Origin: Elusimicrobiales bacterium
GTDB lineage: Bacteria > Elusimicrobiota > Elusimicrobia > Elusimicrobiales > UBA9959
NCBI GenBank assembly: GCA_038204165.1
Contig: JBBRDG010000003.1
Coordinates: 929-64,928, forward strand
Reading direction: 5' to 3'
Length of the DNA stretch: 64,000 nt
Shown: piece after piece, positions 7,495 through 63,562 of the stretch
How the letters are laid out: each line of letters opens with the position of its first letter
Position numbering within the stretch: position 1 is the stretch's first letter
Notes under the pieces: model-generated
Database searches by the model: none
The model's input: the letters and a program-made list of their open reading frames with translations, nothing else
Told to the model about the DNA's origin: nothing
Made by a program: the position numbers and the translations under genes

Positions 7495-8560
7495 AAAATT
7501 CTCCGTTAAGGAGCTGGACGCCGAGCTGTTCACGCCGTTCACCATTTCTACCGGCAGCCACCGCAGCCTGGAAAACCTCGTGTTCACGCTGGAAGCGGCG
7601 GGCGGGGTGAAGGGTTACGGCGAAGCCGCCATCGCCACGCATATAACCGGCGAGACCCGCGAGCGCACCGCCAAAAGCCTGCGCCGGGCGGGGGAACTGC
7701 TGACCGGCCTGAATATGGATAATTACCTGGGCGCGCTCTGCAAACTGGAAGAAGCGCTCGACGGCAACAGGGCGGCCCTGGCGGCGGCGCAGATGGCCGT
7801 GCTGGACCTGACCTGCCGCCTGCAGGGCGTGTCGCTGTGGAAATTTTTCGGCGGCAGGACCCCCGCGCTGAAGACCGACATCACGGTAGTGATAGGCGGG
7901 GCGGACGCGGCCCTGAGCTTCACCAAAAAAATGCGCGCGCGCGGCTTCAAAATCTTCAAAGTAAAGACCGGCTCGGACATGGACGAGGACTTCAGGCGCC
8001 TGGAGGCCGTGAAGGCAGCGGCGCCCGGCTGTGCCATCTATCTGGACGCCAACTGCGCCTACGGGGCCAAAGAGGCGGAGAAGTTCATCGCCAAGCTGGC
8101 CGCTCGCGGCATCAGGCCCGCGGTGCTGGAGCAGCCCGTGGCCAAGGACGACCTGGACGGCCTCGCCTACCTTTCCCGCAAGCTCTCCATGCCGGTCTGC
8201 GCCGACGAGTCGGCCTATTCTCTCGACGACGTTTTTCGGATGATCCGCGCCGGAACCGTTACCGCGGTGAACATAAAACTTACGAAACTGGGCTTTCTGC
8301 GCGCCCGCGAGGTGTGGGCCCTGGCTCGCGCCAAAGGCGTGAAGCTGATGATGGGCGAGATGCTGGAGAGCGAGCTGGCCTCGGCCGCGGCCGCGGCTTT
8401 CGCCGGCGGGCTGGGCGGGATAGATTTTACCGATCTGGACACGCCGTTCTTCATCAAGGACAGCGGCATGACCGGCGCCGGCTTCCTTTCCCGGGACGGG
8501 GTTTATTCCCTGGACCGCGTTAAGGCCGGGATCGGCGTACTGCCCCGGGGAGAGAAATGA
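7475..8560 (+). CDS. Dipeptide epimerase (L-Ala-D/L-Glu epimerase-like, enolase superfamily)
   Basis: 361 aa. Enolase-superfamily metal and acid/base positions (KVKTG, YLDANCAY, LEQPV, CADES). The N-terminal capping domain is typical of MLE-subgroup epimerases. Confidence 0.8.
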   Translation: MKDSIIKKFSVKELDAELFTPFTISTGSHRSLENLVFTLEAAGGVKGYGEAAIATHITGETRERTAKSLRRAGELLTGLNMDNYLGALCKLEEALDGNRAALAAAQMAVLDLTCRLQGVSLWKFFGGRTPALKTDITVVIGGADAALSFTKKMRARGFKIFKVKTGSDMDEDFRRLEAVKAAAPGCAIYLDANCAYGAKEAEKFIAKLAARGIRPAVLEQPVAKDDLDGLAYLSRKLSMPVCADESAYSLDDVFRMIRAGTVTAVNIKLTKLGFLRAREVWALARAKGVKLMMGEMLESELASAAAAAFAGGLGGIDFTDLDTPFFIKDSGMTGAGFLSRDGVYSLDRVKAGIGVLPRGEK

Positions 8561-9216
8561 AGCTGACCCGGGCGCTTGCTTTCTTACTGGTCTGCGCCCT
8601 GGCGCGGGCCGCGGCGGCGCAGCCCGCCGCCCTGCCGGGGCTTGAGGACCTCCCCGAGCCCACCAGGTACCTGGCCGGGTACGTTACCGCCGGCGGAGGC
8701 GTGGCCGTGCCTTTCGCCGGGCACTGGGGGGACAAAGACGCCGGGTTCAAACCTTCCCGGGCTTTCAGCCTGGCCGCCTCGAAACGGGTAGACGAGGTGC
8801 TAAGCTACGGCGTAGAATCGGCGTATTCCCTGAAACACCAGAATCGCACCATTAAGGACCTGGAGCTCAGGCTGTTCTCCCTGACGCCTTTCGCCAGGGT
8901 CTCCTTTCCGCAGGGTGAGACGCTTTATTACGGCATCCTAGGCGCGGGTCTTTACCAGTGGCAGCAGCCGGCCTATACCGCCGCTGGCGCCAGGCACGCT
9001 TCGGATTCCGGCTCCAGCGCAGGGGTAAACCTCGGAGGCGGGGTTTCTTACCCGTTCTGGTGGGGGACAAGGCTGGGGCTTGACCTGCGCTGGCACCATG
9101 TCTTCAACATGAAGGGGAACACCTTCAACCTGAACGCCGCGGATAATATGACCGTCATGCTGGCCCTTCACTACGGGGTCTGGCGGAACAGGGCGGCGGC
9201 CGCCGCGGCGCAGTAG
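8557..9216 (+). CDS. Outer-membrane beta-barrel protein (small OMP)
   Basis: Signal peptide MKLTRALAFLLVCALARAAAA. Alternating amphipathic strands rich in G/Y/S/L; 4-nt overlap with the epimerase gene. Confidence 0.65.
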   Translation: MKLTRALAFLLVCALARAAAAQPAALPGLEDLPEPTRYLAGYVTAGGGVAVPFAGHWGDKDAGFKPSRAFSLAASKRVDEVLSYGVESAYSLKHQNRTIKDLELRLFSLTPFARVSFPQGETLYYGILGAGLYQWQQPAYTAAGARHASDSGSSAGVNLGGGVSYPFWWGTRLGLDLRWHHVFNMKGNTFNLNAADNMTVMLALHYGVWRNRAAAAAAQ

Positions 9217-9220
9217 CCCC

Positions 9221-9249
9221 TTGACAAGTCAAGGCTTTTGTGCTATACT
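9221..9249 (+). promoter_or_regulatory. Consensus sigma70 promoter with a palindromic -35 element
   Basis: TTGACA (9221-9226), a 17-nt spacer, TATACT (9244-9249). The -35 lies inside the inverted repeat CCTTGAC-aa-GTCAAGG, and the same palindrome plus promoter recurs at 28072. Confidence 0.6.
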
Positions 9250-9255
9250 ATCAGT

Positions 9256-9337
9256 GGACGCCAGCAAATGGCCTCCAAATGTGAACTCCTCGAAATAGAG
9301 GAAGCGAAAACCCGCCAAAAGCGGGTTTTCGATTTTA
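9256..9337 (+). ncRNA. Candidate ~80-nt small RNA (promoter-to-terminator unit)
   Basis: Bounded by the 9221 promoter and the 9305-9337 hairpin/U-tract. Three predicted hairpins: TGGAcGCC/GGCcTCCA, TCCTC/GAGGA, and the terminator. Exposed CCUCC and CUCCUC motifs are complementary to SD sequences. Confidence 0.35.
9305..9337 (+). terminator. Rho-independent terminator
   Basis: 11-bp stem CGAAAACCCGC / GCGGGTTTTCG with a 5-nt loop, followed by ATTTTAT. Confidence 0.6.
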
Positions 9338-9445
9338 TAGGCGTTTTATCGCCCTTTAGCCCCGGTTCTTCCAGTCCAACTCCCTAATTAGTATAATTAT
9401 CTATATTAAGGGCCTGCATGCCCGACTATTTTTGCTGGAGGACCT

Positions 9446-10936
9446 ATGGGTAAATTTGTTGAATGCGTGCCGAATTTCAGCGAAGGGCGCGATGTCGCCA
9501 AGATAAACGCCATAGTGGACGCGGCCAGGTCCGTGCCCGGGGTGCTGGTGCTGGACGTTGAGAAAGACGCTGACCACAACCGCACCGTACTTACTTTCAT
9601 AGCCCCGGTGGAAACCGCCGCCGACGCGATGTTCGCCGTCGCCAAGAAAGCCTCCCAGCTTATAGACCTTAACCACCATAAAGGCGAGCATCCCCGCATG
9701 GGCGCCACCGACGTGGCTCCCTTCATCCCGGTAATGGAATCCACGATAGAGGACTGCATAAAGCTTGCCGAAAAGGCCGGTGAACGGATAGGCCGCGAGC
9801 TGAATATCCCGGTCTACCTCTATGACCGCGCCGCCAAGTTTGAACACCGCCGCGATCTGGCCAAGGTGAGAAAGGGCCAGTTCGAGGGCCTGCGGGAAGT
9901 TATCGGCACGGACCCCGAGCGCGTGCCGGATTTCGGGCCCAATCATATCCACCCCACCGCCGGCGCCATAGCCGTGGGCGCCCGCAACCAGATCGTAAAT
10001 TTTAATGTGAACCTGGCCACCACCGACATGGAGTTCGCCAAGGGCCTGGCCAAGAAAATACGTACCTCCGGCGGCGGGCTGCCTGCCCTGCGCGCCAAGG
10101 AGATCTTCCTGGAATCCAAGGGCCAGGTGCAAATGTCCACCGTGCTGACCGACTACCATACCACCAGCATAAAGCGCGTGATGGACGAACTGGCCAAGGA
10201 GCTGGCCCCGAAGAACATCGCCATTACCGGCACCGAGCTTATCGGCCTCACCACGCAGGACGCCATAACCGACTACGCGGTGGAGTCGCTTAAGGTGCAG
10301 GATTTCAAGAAGGAAGAGCAGGTGCTGGAGACTAAGCTGCTGAAACTGCTCAGTTCCTGGCAGGCCGCGGCCAACCTGTTTGTGGACGCGCTCGCCAATA
10401 CCGACCCCACCCCCGGCGGCGGCTCGGCGGGGGCGGTTAATGGCGCCATGGGTTGCGCGCTGGGCCAGATGGCCCTGGGCATCAGCCTGAGGAGCAAAAA
10501 ACTCGACGAGGCGAAGAAGCCCGCGCTGCGCGACCTGGCCGAGCGCCTGGGCGCCCATAAAGTGGCGCTGCAGAACTGCGTGGCCGAGGATTCCTCTTCT
10601 TTCGACGGCTTCATGGAAGCCATGAAACTGCCCAAGGATAACCCGGAACGCAAGGTGAAGATGCAGGCGGCCCTTAAGCACGCTGCCGAAGTTCCCCTGA
10701 AGACCGCCAGGCTGGCTTCCGAGGCGCTGGCCGGGCTGCAGGTCTGCGCCGCCCACATCTCGCCGCAGGTCGTGTCCGATTACCGCAGCGCCGGTTACCA
10801 GCTGGAGGCGGCCATACGCTGCGCGGCAGAGAACGTTTTTATTAACGCGGAAGGCCTTGAGGACAAGGCTTACGCGGAAAAGATCATAGCCGAGGTAAAG
10901 GGCTACCTGCCCTCTTCCGAAGCGGTAAAGGCATAA
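9446..10936 (+). CDS. ftcD: Bifunctional glutamate formimidoyltransferase / formimidoyl-THF cyclodeaminase
   Basis: 496 aa. The N-terminus MGKFVECVPNFSEGRD is diagnostic of formiminotransferases, and the C-terminal ~170-aa helical domain is cyclodeaminase-like. SD GGAGGA lies upstream. Confidence 0.88.
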   Translation: MGKFVECVPNFSEGRDVAKINAIVDAARSVPGVLVLDVEKDADHNRTVLTFIAPVETAADAMFAVAKKASQLIDLNHHKGEHPRMGATDVAPFIPVMESTIEDCIKLAEKAGERIGRELNIPVYLYDRAAKFEHRRDLAKVRKGQFEGLREVIGTDPERVPDFGPNHIHPTAGAIAVGARNQIVNFNVNLATTDMEFAKGLAKKIRTSGGGLPALRAKEIFLESKGQVQMSTVLTDYHTTSIKRVMDELAKELAPKNIAITGTELIGLTTQDAITDYAVESLKVQDFKKEEQVLETKLLKLLSSWQAAANLFVDALANTDPTPGGGSAGAVNGAMGCALGQMALGISLRSKKLDEAKKPALRDLAERLGAHKVALQNCVAEDSSSFDGFMEAMKLPKDNPERKVKMQAALKHAAEVPLKTARLASEALAGLQVCAAHISPQVVSDYRSAGYQLEAAIRCAAENVFINAEGLEDKAYAEKIIAEVKGYLPSSEAVKA

Positions 10937-10946
10937 GGAGCACCGG

Positions 10947-12587
10947 ATGGCAAGCATCGACGCGATTTCACGTGGTTTAATGCTGGACAGTCTGAGGGAA
11001 TACGCCAAGCGGCGCATTCCGTTCGACCTGATCCGCGAGCTGGACGAGAAGAACGAGTTCCCGGCCGATATTCTTAAAGAGATGTACGACCCCGCGATTC
11101 TCGGCGTGCACCTGCTGATGATCCCGACCGAGTACGGCGGCGTTGCCGGCGGCAGCTTTGACATTTACAGGGTCTGCGAATTGCTGGCCCGGATAGACCT
11201 GGGGATAGCCACCGGCGTGTTCGCCACTTTCCTCGGCACCGACCCGCTCAATCAGGGGGGGACCGTGGAGCAGAAGGCCAAGTGGCTCACCCGTATAGCC
11301 AAAGAGAAGCTGCTGGTGGCCTACGGCGCCACCGAGGCCGACGCCGGCTCCGACCTGGTGAACCTACGCACCCGCGCCGAGCACGTGGTGAAGAACGGCA
11401 AGATCGTGGGCTACAATGTTACGGGCAACAAGCAGTGGATTTCCAACGGCGGCGTGGCCGACCTGTACACTATTCTCGCGCTGGCCCCCGGCGGCCCGTC
11501 CTGGTTCCTCGTGGAGAGGAATATGGAGGGCTTCTCACCCAACAAGCATGAGGACAAGCACGGCATAAGGCTTTCCAACACCGCCGGGCTGTCGCTCGAC
11601 AACGTTTACGTTCCCGCCGAGAACCTGATAGGTCTGGAAGAAGGCAAAGGCCTGCAGCAGGCCCAGGCCGTGTTCGGCTACACCCGCGTGATGGTGGCCG
11701 CTTTTGGCCTTGGCTGCGGTACCGAGGCGCTGGAACAGGCCGTGCGGTATAGTCAGCAGCGTATCCAGGGCGGCACCCCGCTTTCCGAAAAGCAGGGCTA
11801 TACCCACAAACTCATAGTGCCTAACGCCGTCAGGCTGGAGGCCTCACGCGCCTATATCGAGGAGACCGCCAACAGGCTGGACGCCGGCGACCACGGCCTG
11901 CAGACCGAGGGCGCCATTGCCAAGTATTCCGCTACCGAGGCCGGCAACAAGATGGCCGAGGACGCCATTCAGGCGCTGGGCGGCTACGGTTACACCAAGG
12001 ACTTTTCCGTAGAGAAGATAAAGCGCGACGTGAAAATCTGTCTAATTTACGAGGGGACCAGCGAGATCATGGAGATGACCATCTACCGCGGGCGCTGGCA
12101 GGAGCACCTTAAGAGCCGCGGCCGCTACTATCTGGAGCAGGCCGACAAACTGGACGAGCTGCACGCCAAGCAGCCCGGCACCGGGGCGCACGCCTCGGCG
12201 CTGGCCCTGCGCGCGCTCGGCGCCATCATGGAAGAGTGCCGCTTGCAGAAGCTGACCCGGCACCAGCATGTTACTTTTAAACTGGGCAAACTTATCGCCG
12301 CGGCTGAATGCGCCGCCTGCTTCTCCCGCGCCGCCGCGGCGGAAAGATACAGCGAAACCGTGCGTTTTGATAAGGCGGCCTGGCAGGCCATGGCCAGGAT
12401 TTTTGCCCGCGAAACCGCCCTCAGCGTCGCCACAGAAGGGCTGGCGCTGGTGCTCGGCGCCGCCGAGCAGGCCGGCAACCTGGCCGACGCTATGAACCTG
12501 GACGCGGTACAGGCCGAGCAGAAGGGCCTAGTTGCCGACATGGACCTCGTCGCGCTCAAGCTGAAACAGACGTTTAAGGCCAAGTGA
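10947..12587 (+). CDS. Acyl-CoA dehydrogenase with ~160-aa C-terminal extension
   Basis: 546 aa. ACAD core with catalytic-base motif IYEGTSEI (E369) and WISNGG. Residues ~386-546 are an extra Ala-rich helical domain. Confidence 0.85.
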   Translation: MASIDAISRGLMLDSLREYAKRRIPFDLIRELDEKNEFPADILKEMYDPAILGVHLLMIPTEYGGVAGGSFDIYRVCELLARIDLGIATGVFATFLGTDPLNQGGTVEQKAKWLTRIAKEKLLVAYGATEADAGSDLVNLRTRAEHVVKNGKIVGYNVTGNKQWISNGGVADLYTILALAPGGPSWFLVERNMEGFSPNKHEDKHGIRLSNTAGLSLDNVYVPAENLIGLEEGKGLQQAQAVFGYTRVMVAAFGLGCGTEALEQAVRYSQQRIQGGTPLSEKQGYTHKLIVPNAVRLEASRAYIEETANRLDAGDHGLQTEGAIAKYSATEAGNKMAEDAIQALGGYGYTKDFSVEKIKRDVKICLIYEGTSEIMEMTIYRGRWQEHLKSRGRYYLEQADKLDELHAKQPGTGAHASALALRALGAIMEECRLQKLTRHQHVTFKLGKLIAAAECAACFSRAAAAERYSETVRFDKAAWQAMARIFARETALSVATEGLALVLGAAEQAGNLADAMNLDAVQAEQKGLVADMDLVALKLKQTFKAK

Positions 12588-28071: not shown

Positions 28072-28103
28072 CCCTTGACAAGTCAAGGGCCTGCGCGTAC
28101 ACT
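28072..28103 (+). promoter_or_regulatory. Sigma70 promoter with a palindromic -35 element (second copy)
   Basis: CCCTTGAC-aa-GTCAAGGG (28072-28089) contains TTGACA (28075-28080), followed by a 17-nt spacer and TACACT (28098-28103). Confidence 0.55.
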
Positions 28104-28131: not shown

Positions 28132-29067
28132 ATGTCTTTTAAATATTTAGTCCCCTTATCTGCTTTGTTGCTCTGTCTGGCCGTTCCGGCTTTCAGCGAA
28201 GATAGTTTTTTCTCCGAACTGGAGGGGATACAGACAGAAAGCCGCGACCAGGGTGCGGCGATGCGGGCAGAGAACGTTAAGAGCCAGGCCGCGCTTAAAG
28301 TCGCCCCGCCCAAGGACGATATAAAGGCTTCGGTGATACGCCACCTGGACAGGGCCATAGCCTATTGTGATAAGAACAAGAAGGACTGCGACGGCGCGAA
28401 CGAGAGTATCCGGGATTTTTCAAAAGGCATAGGCGGCGGGCGCTGCAATAACCGCGGTTTTAACTGCGTGCACGAGGTGCTCGAGACCTGCCGCCAAGAG
28501 ATAAGCCGCAAAGAGATCACTCCCATGTACTACATGGCCTGCGCAGCCATGCTGGGCAAGATAGGCGAGCGCGACTGCGCCGAGGGGCGGGCTACTTGCG
28601 CCGCGCAACTGCAGGGGTCGGTCTATTTCGCGCTTCGCGCCGCGGCTGGCTGCCACAAGAGCTTCGAAGGAAACAAGGCCAGGCTGGCTGAGGCGGACGC
28701 TCTTGCCAAACGGTTTGCGGTCAAGGCCGGCCAGGATATAAAGGCTGTTTACGTGCAGGACGCGGAGGCGGAACAGGCACAGACCATCGGCCACCACCTG
28801 ATCTGGCATGTCGGCAAGGAAGGCGGCGTTATCGGCACTGAGAAAGTGTTGGAGTTCGCTTTTGAAAAACTCGCTCTGCACGGTGCTTCGGCGGCGGTAG
28901 AGGTTGCCGGCGGGCCGCTGTTCATCTTTTCTACTTTTATGCTGTTCCACGAGATAGCCGCTTCGGAGATGAACGACCAGGTTTGCACCGAGTGGAGTCA
29001 TTCATACAACGGCAGTTACGCCAATGCGGCCTCTTCGCTGGATAAGATGACCCGCAATATAAAGTAA
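28132..29067 (+). CDS. Hypothetical secreted Cys-rich protein
   Basis: 311 aa. Signal peptide MSFKYLVPLSALLLCLAVPAFS, at least 12 Cys in the N-terminal half, and a hydrophobic segment near the C-terminus. No family recognised. Confidence 0.6.
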   Translation: MSFKYLVPLSALLLCLAVPAFSEDSFFSELEGIQTESRDQGAAMRAENVKSQAALKVAPPKDDIKASVIRHLDRAIAYCDKNKKDCDGANESIRDFSKGIGGGRCNNRGFNCVHEVLETCRQEISRKEITPMYYMACAAMLGKIGERDCAEGRATCAAQLQGSVYFALRAAAGCHKSFEGNKARLAEADALAKRFAVKAGQDIKAVYVQDAEAEQAQTIGHHLIWHVGKEGGVIGTEKVLEFAFEKLALHGASAAVEVAGGPLFIFSTFMLFHEIAASEMNDQVCTEWSHSYNGSYANAASSLDKMTRNIK

Positions 29068-45386: not shown

Positions 45387-45416
45387 TTGACAGGCTTGAG
45401 CGGCCGCTGATACAAT
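45387..45416 (+). promoter_or_regulatory. Sigma70 promoter abutting the moaD start codon
   Basis: TTGACA (45387-45392), an 18-nt spacer, TACAAT (45411-45416). Only 7 nt lie between the -10 and the ATG at 45424, with no SD. Confidence 0.6.
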
Positions 45417-45423
45417 TCTTAAG

Positions 45424-45669
45424 ATGAAAAAGAAAATTATGGTCCGCTATTTTGCGCTTATCGGCGAGCGGCGCGGCACGCAGACCGAGGCCTATGAGAC
45501 CTGCGCCGAGACGGCGCGGGAGCTGCTGCACGAGCTGCAGGCCGGCAAAGTTATTCCCCTTACCACCAACATCTCCAAGGCCTCCATAAACGACAAGTTC
45601 GTGGACTGGGACGCCCCCATCCAAGACGGCGACCTGGTCACCCTGCTCTCCCCGTTCTCCGGCGGTTGA
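45424..45669 (+). CDS. moaD: MoaD/ThiS-family ubiquitin-like sulfur carrier
   Basis: 81 aa ending in ...LLSPFSGG (C-terminal Gly-Gly). MVRYFALIGERRG aligns with MoaD N-termini, so an alternative start is the ATG at 45439. Confidence 0.85.
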   Translation: MKKKIMVRYFALIGERRGTQTEAYETCAETARELLHELQAGKVIPLTTNISKASINDKFVDWDAPIQDGDLVTLLSPFSGG

Positions 45670-56829: not shown

Positions 56830-58536
56830 ATGGTACAAAAACACAGGCTTTACGTGATCCTGGCCGCCGCGGCGCTGGTTTTTCACCTGTTCGAGGGGTT
56901 CGGATTTATAAATTCCGCTTCGCCCACTTACGACGAGACGGTGCACCTGTCCAGCGGCTACTCCTACCTGGCCACCGGCCTTTACCGGATGAACGTGATG
57001 GACCATCCGCCTTTTTCCGAGATGCTCTCGGCGCTGCCGCTGCTGGCCCTTAAGCCGCAGTCTTTTGCCGGGCACCCTTTCTTTCTGAACCTCCAGGCCT
57101 ATCATTACGGCGACTTGTTCCTGTATCACAACAACAGCCCCGCCGAACGCCTGCTCAACACCGCCAGGCGCTTCACTTTCGTGATCTGGACGGTCCTGCT
57201 GGCCATTTTCATCTGGCTGTTCGCCTCCAGGCTGGAATCGGCGGAGGCGGCGGGGCTTTCCATAGCGGTCTTCTGCCTGATGCCGGTCTTTATTTCCAAC
57301 GACGCGCTGGTAACTACCGACGCCGCGGCCGCGGTGTTCTATTTTGGTTCTTTTGCGCTGGCCTGGCGTTTTGTCGACGCCGGTACTGAAGCCGGCAAGG
57401 GTGGTAAACACCCCGCGCTCCCTGAAGGCAAACTGCGGCTCTGGGCCTGCCTCTCCGGCGCGGCGGCCGGGCTGGGCATGGTCTCCAAGTTCAGCCTGTT
57501 CATTATCCCGCCCCTGGTGGCCGTTTTCTGGATAGCAGACAACCTGCGCTGGCCGCGGATGAAATTTTCAAAGCTCGCCGGCTATCTCGGTCTGTTCGCC
57601 GCGGCCTGCCTGCTTACGGTGCTGCTGGTCTACAAGTTCGACCTGAAGCTTTATTACGACGGCCTTTACGCTACGCTGACGCGCCTGGACGCAGGCCGCT
57701 CTTCGTTCGCCATGGGCCGCCACACGCTGAAGGGGGTCTGGTGGTACTTCCCCTTCGCCCTGGCGGTAAAAACCCCGCTGCTGGCGCTTCTTGGCGCCGC
57801 CGCGGGGCTTGTGCTTATTTTTAAGAACTTCCGCAAAGGCTATCTGTGGCTGCTGGTGCCGCCGGCTATCTTCTTAGCGGCTTCGTTTACCGTGAAGGTG
57901 CAGATAGGCTACAGGCACATCATGCCGGTGATGCCTTTCCTGGCCGTGCTGGCCGGTATAGCGCTGGCGCGGCTGCTGCAGGTTAAGAAAGGCGCCTGGC
58001 TCGCCTGCGGGCTGCTGGGGCTTACCGCGGTTTCCGTTTCACGCGCGCACCCTTACTACCTCGCTTATTTCAACGAACTGGCCGGCGGGCCGGCCGGGGG
58101 CTACAAACTGTTCGTGGATTCGAACCTGGATTGGGGGCAGGACGTGAAGGGCGTGGCGGAGTATCTGCGTTCGCGCGGCAACCCGCCGGCGATCTTCTCC
58201 TATTTCGGCGTGGCCCGCCCGGAGAGCTACGGCGTGGATTATGTGCCCCTGGGCATTGTTTCCAACGTGGAATTCCCAGGCAGCGGCGCGCAGGTCTGCG
58301 CTATGAAGGAAATGCTGCTGGCGGTTTCGGCCACCAATCTGCAGGGGACCTATTATTCCGACCATAACACCTTCTCCTGGCTGAAAGACAGGAAGCCTGT
58401 CTACACGGCCGGCTATTCTATCTTCGTTTACGACCTAACCGCGGATAAGGATGGATTGGAAAAACTCGCGGCGCTGTTCGACCGCGAAGGCCGTAACGTC
58501 GAGGCCGACTGCCTTTACGCCCGCGCCGGTAAATAA
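56830..58536 (+). CDS. GT39/ArnT-PMT-family glycosyltransferase
   Basis: 568 aa, polytopic. First-loop YDETVH (DE motif) and a large C-terminal periplasmic domain. Confidence 0.75.
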   Translation: MVQKHRLYVILAAAALVFHLFEGFGFINSASPTYDETVHLSSGYSYLATGLYRMNVMDHPPFSEMLSALPLLALKPQSFAGHPFFLNLQAYHYGDLFLYHNNSPAERLLNTARRFTFVIWTVLLAIFIWLFASRLESAEAAGLSIAVFCLMPVFISNDALVTTDAAAAVFYFGSFALAWRFVDAGTEAGKGGKHPALPEGKLRLWACLSGAAAGLGMVSKFSLFIIPPLVAVFWIADNLRWPRMKFSKLAGYLGLFAAACLLTVLLVYKFDLKLYYDGLYATLTRLDAGRSSFAMGRHTLKGVWWYFPFALAVKTPLLALLGAAAGLVLIFKNFRKGYLWLLVPPAIFLAASFTVKVQIGYRHIMPVMPFLAVLAGIALARLLQVKKGAWLACGLLGLTAVSVSRAHPYYLAYFNELAGGPAGGYKLFVDSNLDWGQDVKGVAEYLRSRGNPPAIFSYFGVARPESYGVDYVPLGIVSNVEFPGSGAQVCAMKEMLLAVSATNLQGTYYSDHNTFSWLKDRKPVYTAGYSIFVYDLTADKDGLEKLAALFDREGRNVEADCLYARAGK

Positions 58537-63326: not shown

Positions 63327-63419
63327 ATTGTAGCAAAACTTTCATTGAGCGCAGACAAGAACTGTTAACAGGTTTTTCAAAAAATGCTATTATTAAAAGC
63401 GCAGTACTTACCACCTTTT

Positions 63420-63491
63420 GCCGCGGTAGCTCAGTGGTAGAGCACTGGTCTGAAAAACCAGGTGTCGTTGGTTCGATCCCAACCCGCGGCA
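63420..63491 (+). tRNA. tRNA-Phe (GAA)
   Basis: Hand-folded cloverleaf: acceptor GCCGCGG/CCGCGGC, D arm GCTC-AGTGGTA-GAGC, anticodon arm CTGGT-CTGAAAA-ACCAG (anticodon GAA), variable GTGTC, T arm GTTGG-TTCGATC-CCAAC, discriminator A. CCA is not encoded. Confidence 0.93.
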
Positions 63492-63562
63492 AATTCTTTT
63501 TAAAGCCAAGGCTAGCGTCAGATTCACTCCCTCGTTTTTAATCCTCTGTCCTGTTTAACTAT

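Follow-up and report, generated by a model that had tools for sequence, protein, structure and literature searches.

A candidate small RNA gene with a palindromic operator-like site, conserved in one clade of uncultured Elusimicrobiales

RsaE/RoxS (RF01820) are C-rich small RNAs (sRNAs) of Firmicutes, which are transcribed from their own sigma-A promoter under the control of a transcription factor and which pair with Shine-Dalgarno regions. Here, we describe a candidate RNA gene at 9221-9336 of a 64,000-nt stretch of DNA from an Elusimicrobiales bacterium (contig JBBRDG010000003.1; the whole stretch is called the window below), located between a gene for an outer membrane protein (OMP) of the OMP_b-brl type and ftcD. 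Very probably, as judged from its conservation pattern, this element is a genuine, independent structured RNA gene. The element resembles RsaE/RoxS in its size (~80-100 nt), in having its own sigma-A/70-type promoter and an intrinsic terminator, and in carrying a conserved C-rich element. It differs from them in that it shows no sequence or covariance-model similarity, in that it belongs to another phylum, and in that the C-rich UCCCC is here the arm of a helix instead of a loop or an unpaired stretch.

Other described systems share part of this layout. As in the type I 3' untranslated region sRNAs MicL and DapZ, the promoter follows directly on the end of the gene before it and one terminator is common to sRNA and operon, an arrangement in which transcripts of the OMP operon would bear the sRNA as their 3' end. 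Unlike in MicL and DapZ, the promoter lies outside the coding sequence and is sigma-70-like, not sigma-E-type, and the unit also occurs without a co-oriented upstream gene in three of the relative loci (L020, L046 and L057). The usual position beside OMP beta-barrel and envelope-biogenesis genes, together with a putative partner that is a secreted protein, recalls MicA, RybB and MicF, from which the element is set apart by the absence of homology and by a complementarity to the adjacent OMP mRNA that does not rise above shuffled controls. With attenuating leaders and riboswitches it shares the succession of promoter, structured RNA and terminator upstream of a metabolic gene, mostly on the same strand; here, unlike there, ftcD is preceded by a conserved promoter of its own, the element is also found before convergent genes, no antiterminator is seen and Rfam gives no match. 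By analogy, RsaE/RoxS-type C-rich sRNAs and the 3'-end-embedded MicL and DapZ would be the closest functional analogues, membership in either group not being supported.

The search of the window with Rfam 15 (4227 covariance models, including those for RsaE and the THF riboswitches) returned, at the gathering threshold, nothing but a tRNA-Phe. At E <= 10, the RNA region yielded nothing beyond terminator-driven matches of 12-25 bits, versus thresholds of 40-114, and six other RNA-bearing loci were without a match at E <= 0.01. Full-text searches of the literature brought up no study of Elusimicrobia regulatory RNAs. The RNA appears to represent a previously undescribed sRNA family of ordinary bacterial design, which is of use for annotation and for framing hypotheses but brings no new concept. 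Nearly all knowledge of the phylum comes from metagenomes, and an sRNA family backed by covariation can be annotated across the metagenome-assembled genomes (MAGs) concerned.

The gap in question comprises 229 nt (9217-9445), from the stop codon (9214-9216) of the OMP_b-brl gene (8557-9216, + strand) to the ATG of ftcD at 9446 (+ strand). The length of the gap agrees with that given in an earlier note on this DNA (the original prediction), which had proposed that the gap holds a unit, complete from promoter to terminator, for a candidate sRNA of ~80 nt and had suggested examining relatives for conservation and covariation; both were found, and the proposal was borne out by conservation of the block as a whole, also where it is detached from the OMP gene and ftcD. 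Scanned against 185,579 species genomes, the FTCD protein matched 59 loci of uncultured Elusimicrobia/Elusimicrobiales MAGs, with protein identities of 67-96%, besides one unrelated match. Aquifer, groundwater or sediment sites yielded such MAGs, for example the GWA2/GWC2 and CG1_02 genomes (loci L002, L004 and L009). When the intergenic region was used as a blastn query, promoter and RNA (query 1-120) were kept at ~70-91% identity in most of the 59 ftcD loci, and nothing but a short stretch about the -10 box of ftcD could be aligned between the RNA and ftcD. A covariance model (R1), for which 13 copies of equal length and the three-hairpin structure were used after a regular-expression search, matched 50 copies at E <= 1.1e-6 (38.8-110.9 bits), a single one of which lies in the window. 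A pattern scan of metagenomes (241 million records) added 25 further copies (77-109 bits), bringing the sequence copies of the promoter-RNA-terminator block from uncultured Elusimicrobiales to ~75. The RNA lies <4 kb from ftcD in 48 of the ~56 loci with enough upstream sequence; the eight genomes that have no copy near ftcD are L019, L025, L035, L036, L043, L048, L050 and L055. It was matched neither in a plasmid collection by blastn nor in viral contigs by pattern scan, which argues that the element is not mobile or phage-borne. In the data searched, the family appears to be confined to one clade of uncultured Elusimicrobiales.

Two loci hold more than one copy. In L024, two full RNA-gene copies (852-944 and 2210-2300) stand on either side of an epimerase gene, and in L041, a full copy is joined by a partial one (the two copies being at 1212-1295 and 2379-2469) after a duplicated FGE-sulfatase gene. 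The arrangement in both loci shows local duplication of the unit.

Covariation was assessed on 49 distinct copies in an alignment fitted to the model, a procedure that favours the structure. Pair cells were standard in 97.4% of cases, compared with 87.4% for shuffled and 38-52% for slid controls; 11 of the 24 pairs have changes in both partners (99 cells), and none of 500 shuffles reached the observed covariation on any of five measures. The raw sequences, too, clearly display compensatory changes (GGACGCC...GGCCUCC, GGUCGCC...GGCCACC, AGCCGCC...GGCCGCU and GGCCGCAGGCCC...GGGCCUGCCGCC). MAFFT followed by RNAalifold recovered the terminator only, hairpin 1 being misaligned by loop indels, and realignment with the covariance model cured this. 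Since the loop lengths differ by 1, 2 and 4 nt, which are not multiples of three, and no open reading frame (ORF) is shared among the copies, the RNA is taken to be non-coding.

The three hairpins drawn by eye in the original prediction were also obtained by computation. The RNA at 9256-9340 folds with -36.8 kcal/mol, compared to a shuffle mean of -17.1 (z = -6.4), with none of 200 shuffles folding as well and with identical minimum free energy (MFE) and centroid structures. With G9256 as first base and an end in the U tract near 9336, its length would be about 81 nt. The first hairpin, P1 (9256-9276, + strand), has a variable loop closed by an inner stem of 4 bp (4-8 bp in relatives), and a C.C mismatch separates this stem from an outer one of 3 bp. 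All seven of its pairs vary, six of them on both sides (columns 3/40, for instance, are AU in 25, CG in 15 and UA in 7 copies), and the 1x1 mismatch C9259/C9273, occasionally U.C, is conserved, its columns being C in 86% and 96% of copies. P1 is followed by the linker AAAUGUGAAC (9277-9286, + strand; family consensus AAMUGWGAAC), which stays single-stranded in both the MFE and the centroid structure and comprises the best-conserved unpaired bases of the RNA (U9280 in 94%, G9281 in 92%, A9284 in 100%, A9285 in 88% and C9286 in 98% of copies). The family core reads UGWGAAC, then UCCCC and G; in a divergent clade (L031-L033 and L051-L054) the linker is GUUGAAACCCCCC.

The second hairpin, P2 (9287-9302, + strand), has a variable loop and pairs UCCUC with GAGGA in the window and UCCCC with GGGGA in the family. 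Two of its pairs show compensatory changes, including the window's own change from C-G to U-A, and 95.9% of its cells are paired. The third, P3 (9304-9336, + strand), is an intrinsic terminator of the form GCGAAAACCCGC-CAAAA-GCGGGUUUUCG(c) plus U tract, whose stem counts 11 bp in the window (9305-9331, with ATTTTAT behind it) and 12 bp in the family; an 11-bp hairpin with a U-rich tail had been read as a terminator in the original prediction too. Its covarying pairs change from A-U to U-A in 12 copies, from G-C to C-G in five and from C-G to G-C in one. Stem and CAAAA loop are 80-100% identical among copies, and the core positions outside the covarying pairs are 100% identical. P3 is symmetric, hence potentially a bidirectional terminator; in L020 and L046, convergent genes end at it.

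The exposure of two anti-Shine-Dalgarno motifs, which had been part of the original prediction, did not hold. CCUCC (9272-9276) forms the 3' arm of P1 and CUCCUC (9286-9291) the 5' arm of P2 in the MFE structure, the centroid and the covariation-supported consensus. Nor is CCUCC a conserved motif, its middle base covarying with its partner (AU 25, CG 15 and UA 7 sequences), and CUCCUC is the window's variant of the family's CUCCCC, arisen through the compensatory change from C-G to U-A inside P2. In the family as a whole, CUCCYC is conserved at this place, but in paired form.

Upstream of the RNA lies a sigma-70-type promoter (9221-9249, + strand), composed of the -35 box TTGACA (9221-9226), a 17-bp spacer and the extended -10 element TGcTATACT (9241-9249, with TG at 9241-9242 and TATACT at 9244-9249). 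With 11/12 consensus matches plus the extended -10, it deserves the description of near-perfect that it had been given before; four sites with 11/12 matches were counted on both strands of the window, versus 0.18 in shuffles. P1 starts a fixed 34-35 nt from the -35 box in ~45 genomes, over a spacer of variable sequence. Because of this constant distance, the transcription start is probably G9256, 7 nt past the -10 box, in which case P1 would begin at +1.

The -35 box is covered by the operator-like palindrome CCTTGAC-AA-GTCAAGG (9219-9234, + strand), with the conserved core TTGACAAGTCAA at 9221-9232. The exact 12-mer TTGACAAGTCAA starts 41 RNA-gene promoters (window and L001-L060), and the spacer behind it is not conserved. 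Further, the exact 16-mer CCTTGACAAGTCAAGG occurs twice in the window, at 9219-9234 and at 28073-28088, both times over a -35 box with a 17-bp spacer (4 strand matches compared to 0.39 in shuffles), in line with the earlier claim that an inverted repeat over the -35 box recurs with the same promoter geometry. Across the 745 kb of sequence compared, 72 TTGACNNGTCAA sites were found, 63 of them at the RNA promoter and nine at promoters of a gene family encoding a 311-aa protein, versus a chance expectation of ~1.4. In four loci (L012, L013, L029 and L053) the second half-site of the dyad is lost and the -10 box is changed to TAAAAC. The central dinucleotide varies and both half-sites are kept, which fits a symmetric protein-binding site, not a -35 box alone. 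The palindrome was also considered as a terminator of the OMP operon and rejected, as the T run behind it is present in the window only and absent from relatives. A clean promoter-operator module of this kind indicates that E. coli-like sigma-70 signals operate in the lineage.

The second operator-promoter module of the window (28073-28103, + strand) consists of CCTTGACAAGTCAAGG, the 17-bp spacer from the -35 box and the -10 box TACACT (28098-28103). Behind it, an ORF at 28132-29067 (+ strand) encodes the 311-aa protein, which has a signal peptide and is Cys-rich and all-helical. For this protein, 42 homologs were retrieved, and all those with a source name come from Elusimicrobia, Elusimicrobiales or Elusimicrobiota; no Pfam domain was detected in it, nor any PDB fold match at E <= 0.001 for its AlphaFold 2 model (mean predicted local distance difference test score 72.5). 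The five homologs whose loci were fetched (L086, L089, L090, L092 and L093) all carry CCTTGAC-(TT or AT)-GTCAAGG followed at equal spacing by TATACT, ~20-45 nt before the start codon, which makes six genomes with that of the window. Their gene neighbourhoods differ, with a Transglut_core gene in some and a ThiF gene in others.

A shared regulator had been suggested from the recurrence of the repeat. As the dyad is kept upstream of homologs of the gene at 28132 in five further genomes and was found nowhere else in the 745 kb apart from the RNA promoter, a regulator common to the RNA gene and the 311-aa gene is well supported by this sequence comparison, and the 311-aa protein is a putative co-regulated partner of the RNA. 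A dimeric DNA-binding protein on the dyad CTTGAC-NN-GTCAAG would probably control the RNA promoter. Given that the dyad covers the -35 box of an otherwise very strong promoter, this protein would most likely act as a repressor of the RNA gene and of the unit at 28132-29067. To our knowledge, the dyad fits none of the operator consensuses HAIR, CtsR, CopY/BlaI cop box, Rex and GntR-type. No transcription-factor gene was consistently adjacent, two-component or LuxR-type genes lying near the 311-aa gene in some genomes only. A regulon of two members, the RNA and an uncharacterised secreted protein, would be testable.

The position of the RNA gene among its neighbours was compared across relatives. 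The commonest gene order is PIG-L deacetylase, GT4, MR/MLE epimerase, OMP, RNA, ftcD and acyl-CoA dehydrogenase (ACAD), with the RNA element co-oriented with ftcD and ~80-250 nt upstream of it in most genomes. In the window, the -35 box of the RNA promoter begins 5 nt past the OMP stop codon (5-30 nt in most genomes) with no terminator in between, and the RNA terminator is therefore likely to end the PIG-L/GT4/epimerase/OMP operon here as well. Several loci depart from this order. In L020 and L046, the RNA is flanked by a divergent TPR gene (- strand) and a convergent Peptidase_M28 gene (- strand), whose stop codon abuts the RNA terminator; in L057, a close relative of L020, both the peptidase gene and the upstream OMP operon are absent. 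In L040, the RNA is found behind a PAD_porph gene, facing a convergent 428-aa ORF, 3 kb from ftcD. The full copy in L041 stands between two FGE-sulfatase paralogs, and the partial one (P2 + P3 only) stands just before ftcD. The unit is missing from L036, where the OMP gene closes with a plain terminator, CCCGGC...GCCGGG-TTTTATTT, directly followed by the ftcD promoter block. This simple terminator (L036:3660-3730) overlaps the OMP stop codon; the locus represents a natural deletion or a never-inserted state.

The ftcD promoter block TAATTAGTATAAT (9385-9411, + strand) lies outside the RNA gene. It comprises a TTTCCA-like -35 element, the -10 box TATAAT (9392-9397) and an AT-rich stretch behind it, and it is kept upstream of ftcD in almost all loci, including L036, which lacks the RNA gene, and L020, L024 and L041, in which further genes stand between the RNA gene and ftcD. 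Together with the Shine-Dalgarno sequence GGAGG (9436-9440), it confirms that ftcD has a TATAAT and a Shine-Dalgarno sequence of its own, as had been noted before. The extended form of the block, TAATTAGTATAAT-TTATATATATAA, is found at variable distance from the start codon and its conservation reaches beyond the -10 box; it might include a regulatory site there. Taken together, the opposite-strand contexts, the loss in L036 and the separate ftcD promoter argue that the RNA gene is neither a leader or attenuator of ftcD nor a mere terminator of the OMP operon.

Each of these two readings has observations that speak for it. If the element were a cis-acting 5' leader or attenuator, ftcD-ACAD would be expressed from its strong promoter and termination at the hairpin would be regulated, which would suit both the co-oriented position directly upstream of ftcD in most genomes and the weakness of ftcD's own -35 element. 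Against this, a minus-strand peptidase gene intervenes in L020 and L046, the next gene is convergent in L040 and other genes follow in L024 and L041, whereas L036 keeps the ftcD promoter block without the element. Furthermore, nothing upstream of P3 complements either arm of the terminator, so that no antiterminator is visible, the MFE and centroid structures are identical, and no riboswitch or leader family matches. The leader reading is thus largely refuted by context and we regard it as very improbable. About as little credit, and if anything a shade less, is due to the reading in which the hairpin does no more than terminate the OMP operon, the resemblance to a promoter in front of it being accidental or due to another function. 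That no other terminator lies between the OMP stop (9216) and the hairpin, that L036 has a plain terminator in the same place, and that the partial copy of L041 (P2 + P3), behind an inserted gene, resembles a mere terminator would all agree with it. However, promoter, dyad and P1 are conserved with the hairpin at fixed spacing, the strongest covariation is that of P1, which a terminator does not explain, and the unit is present where the upstream gene is divergent (L020, L046 and L057). The original prediction had named this very alternative as a test, and the outcome, with the unit also standing between opposite-strand genes in L020 and L046, went against it. The least probable of all is a tiny protein, for which the window does offer an ORF, an ATG at 9270 opening a 39-codon frame within a 49-aa TTG ORF (9238-9387). 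This ATG is absent in most relatives, the loops of P1 and P2 carry 1-, 2- and 4-nt indels, and the frame would cross the terminator, with neither a Shine-Dalgarno sequence nor a Pfam match.

We return to the independent sRNA gene, for which the following course of events is proposed. The RNA would be transcribed from the near-consensus extended -10 promoter, whose -35 box is embedded in the dyad, and the transcript would consist of a 5' hairpin at +1, a 10-nt linker, a short C-rich hairpin and a sequence-invariant terminator hairpin. The combination of a protective 5' hairpin, a single-stranded stretch beside a C-rich segment and a terminator is, by analogy, the architecture of base-pairing sRNAs, and the likeliest action would be in trans, with the candidate seed UGWGAACUCCCC pairing to mRNAs of genes located elsewhere, at G-rich sites that resemble Shine-Dalgarno sequences. 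That the element is a free-standing sRNA gene, that its RNA acts in trans by base-pairing and that it is repressed through the dyad is, as one statement, the account we favour, if with appreciably less assurance than the existence of the RNA gene itself.

A number of observations weigh against this account. Synteny is strong, with the RNA directly upstream of and co-oriented with ftcD in most genomes, which leaves room for some contribution of read-through to ftcD expression. All copies come from uncultured MAGs or metagenomes, and the RNA is a predicted one. The C-rich element is base-paired in P2, not exposed. The near-invariant stem-loop of the terminator exceeds what termination needs and could indicate a protein-binding role. 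Finally, the target search, which covered 64 kb of one genome plus six syntenic neighbour genes, gave no convincing target: the 56 gene 5' regions of the window contained no outlier, and the 5' regions of the PIG-L, GT4, epimerase, OMP, FTCD and ACAD genes (26-48 genomes) paired with the RNA of their own genome no better than with shuffled seeds. The idea that anti-Shine-Dalgarno motifs are aimed at the neighbouring genes is not supported by these values from ~45 genomes, and the target prediction against 5' regions recommended in the original prediction ended without a supported target in the window or in the six syntenic genes. A duplex scan of the whole window returned one strong site, at 56881-56910 (+ strand; -28.5 kcal/mol, with 17/18 positions paired, counting two G.U), which complements the linker and the P2 arm and corresponds to codons 18-23 of an ArnT/PMT_2-like glycosyltransferase gene (56830-58536). 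As a family-wide target it was rejected, because the FEGFGF encoded there is FAGFSF in most homologs, which would destroy the pairing; the complementarity is probably due to chance or lineage-specific.

Some of the same observations would be accommodated by a protein-binding or sequestering RNA, or a scaffold, in which P3, the C.C mismatch and the linker are protein recognition elements. P3 stem and CAAAA loop are 80-100% identical although termination needs structure only, the two columns of the C.C mismatch keep their C in 86% and 96% of copies, and no mRNA target was detectable in the 64 kb and the six neighbouring genes. On the other hand, repeated binding motifs, of which the GGA loops in CsrB-type RNAs are an example, are absent, the P2 loop being variable with GGA in some copies only; a size of ~81 nt with a conserved single-stranded stretch beside a C-rich segment fits the usual base-pairing sRNA; and the negative target search was limited to the 64 kb and six neighbouring genes. 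We consider this possibility unlikely, if far less so than the cis-acting and coding alternatives discussed above. Going beyond the base-pairing account, one may speculate that the RNA and the 311-aa protein form a minimal, two-unit, clade-specific regulon under one dimeric repressor. In such a regulon, the RNA would serve an envelope or extracytoplasmic response at the post-transcriptional level, acting via the linker and the C-rich segment or via a protein that recognises P3 and the C.C mismatch, and no regulatory RNA circuit would have been defined in Elusimicrobiota before this one; we offer this as a tentative proposal.

Several minor features of the window were also recorded. A 587-aa ORF runs antisense to ftcD (9401-11164, - strand), and many further long antisense ORFs are found; such ORFs are typical artefacts of a G+C content of ~59% and were not counted as genes. 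The tRNA-Phe (GAA) gene at 63419-63492 (+ strand) is the sole Rfam or ARAGORN match in the window. Two additional near-consensus extended -10 promoters (11/12 + TG) were noted, one at 45387-45416 (+ strand), ahead of a small ORF starting at 45426, and another at 62197-62169 (- strand), ahead of a gene at 62139-61711 (- strand) whose product was judged by eye, without a domain search, to be of the Rrf2 type.

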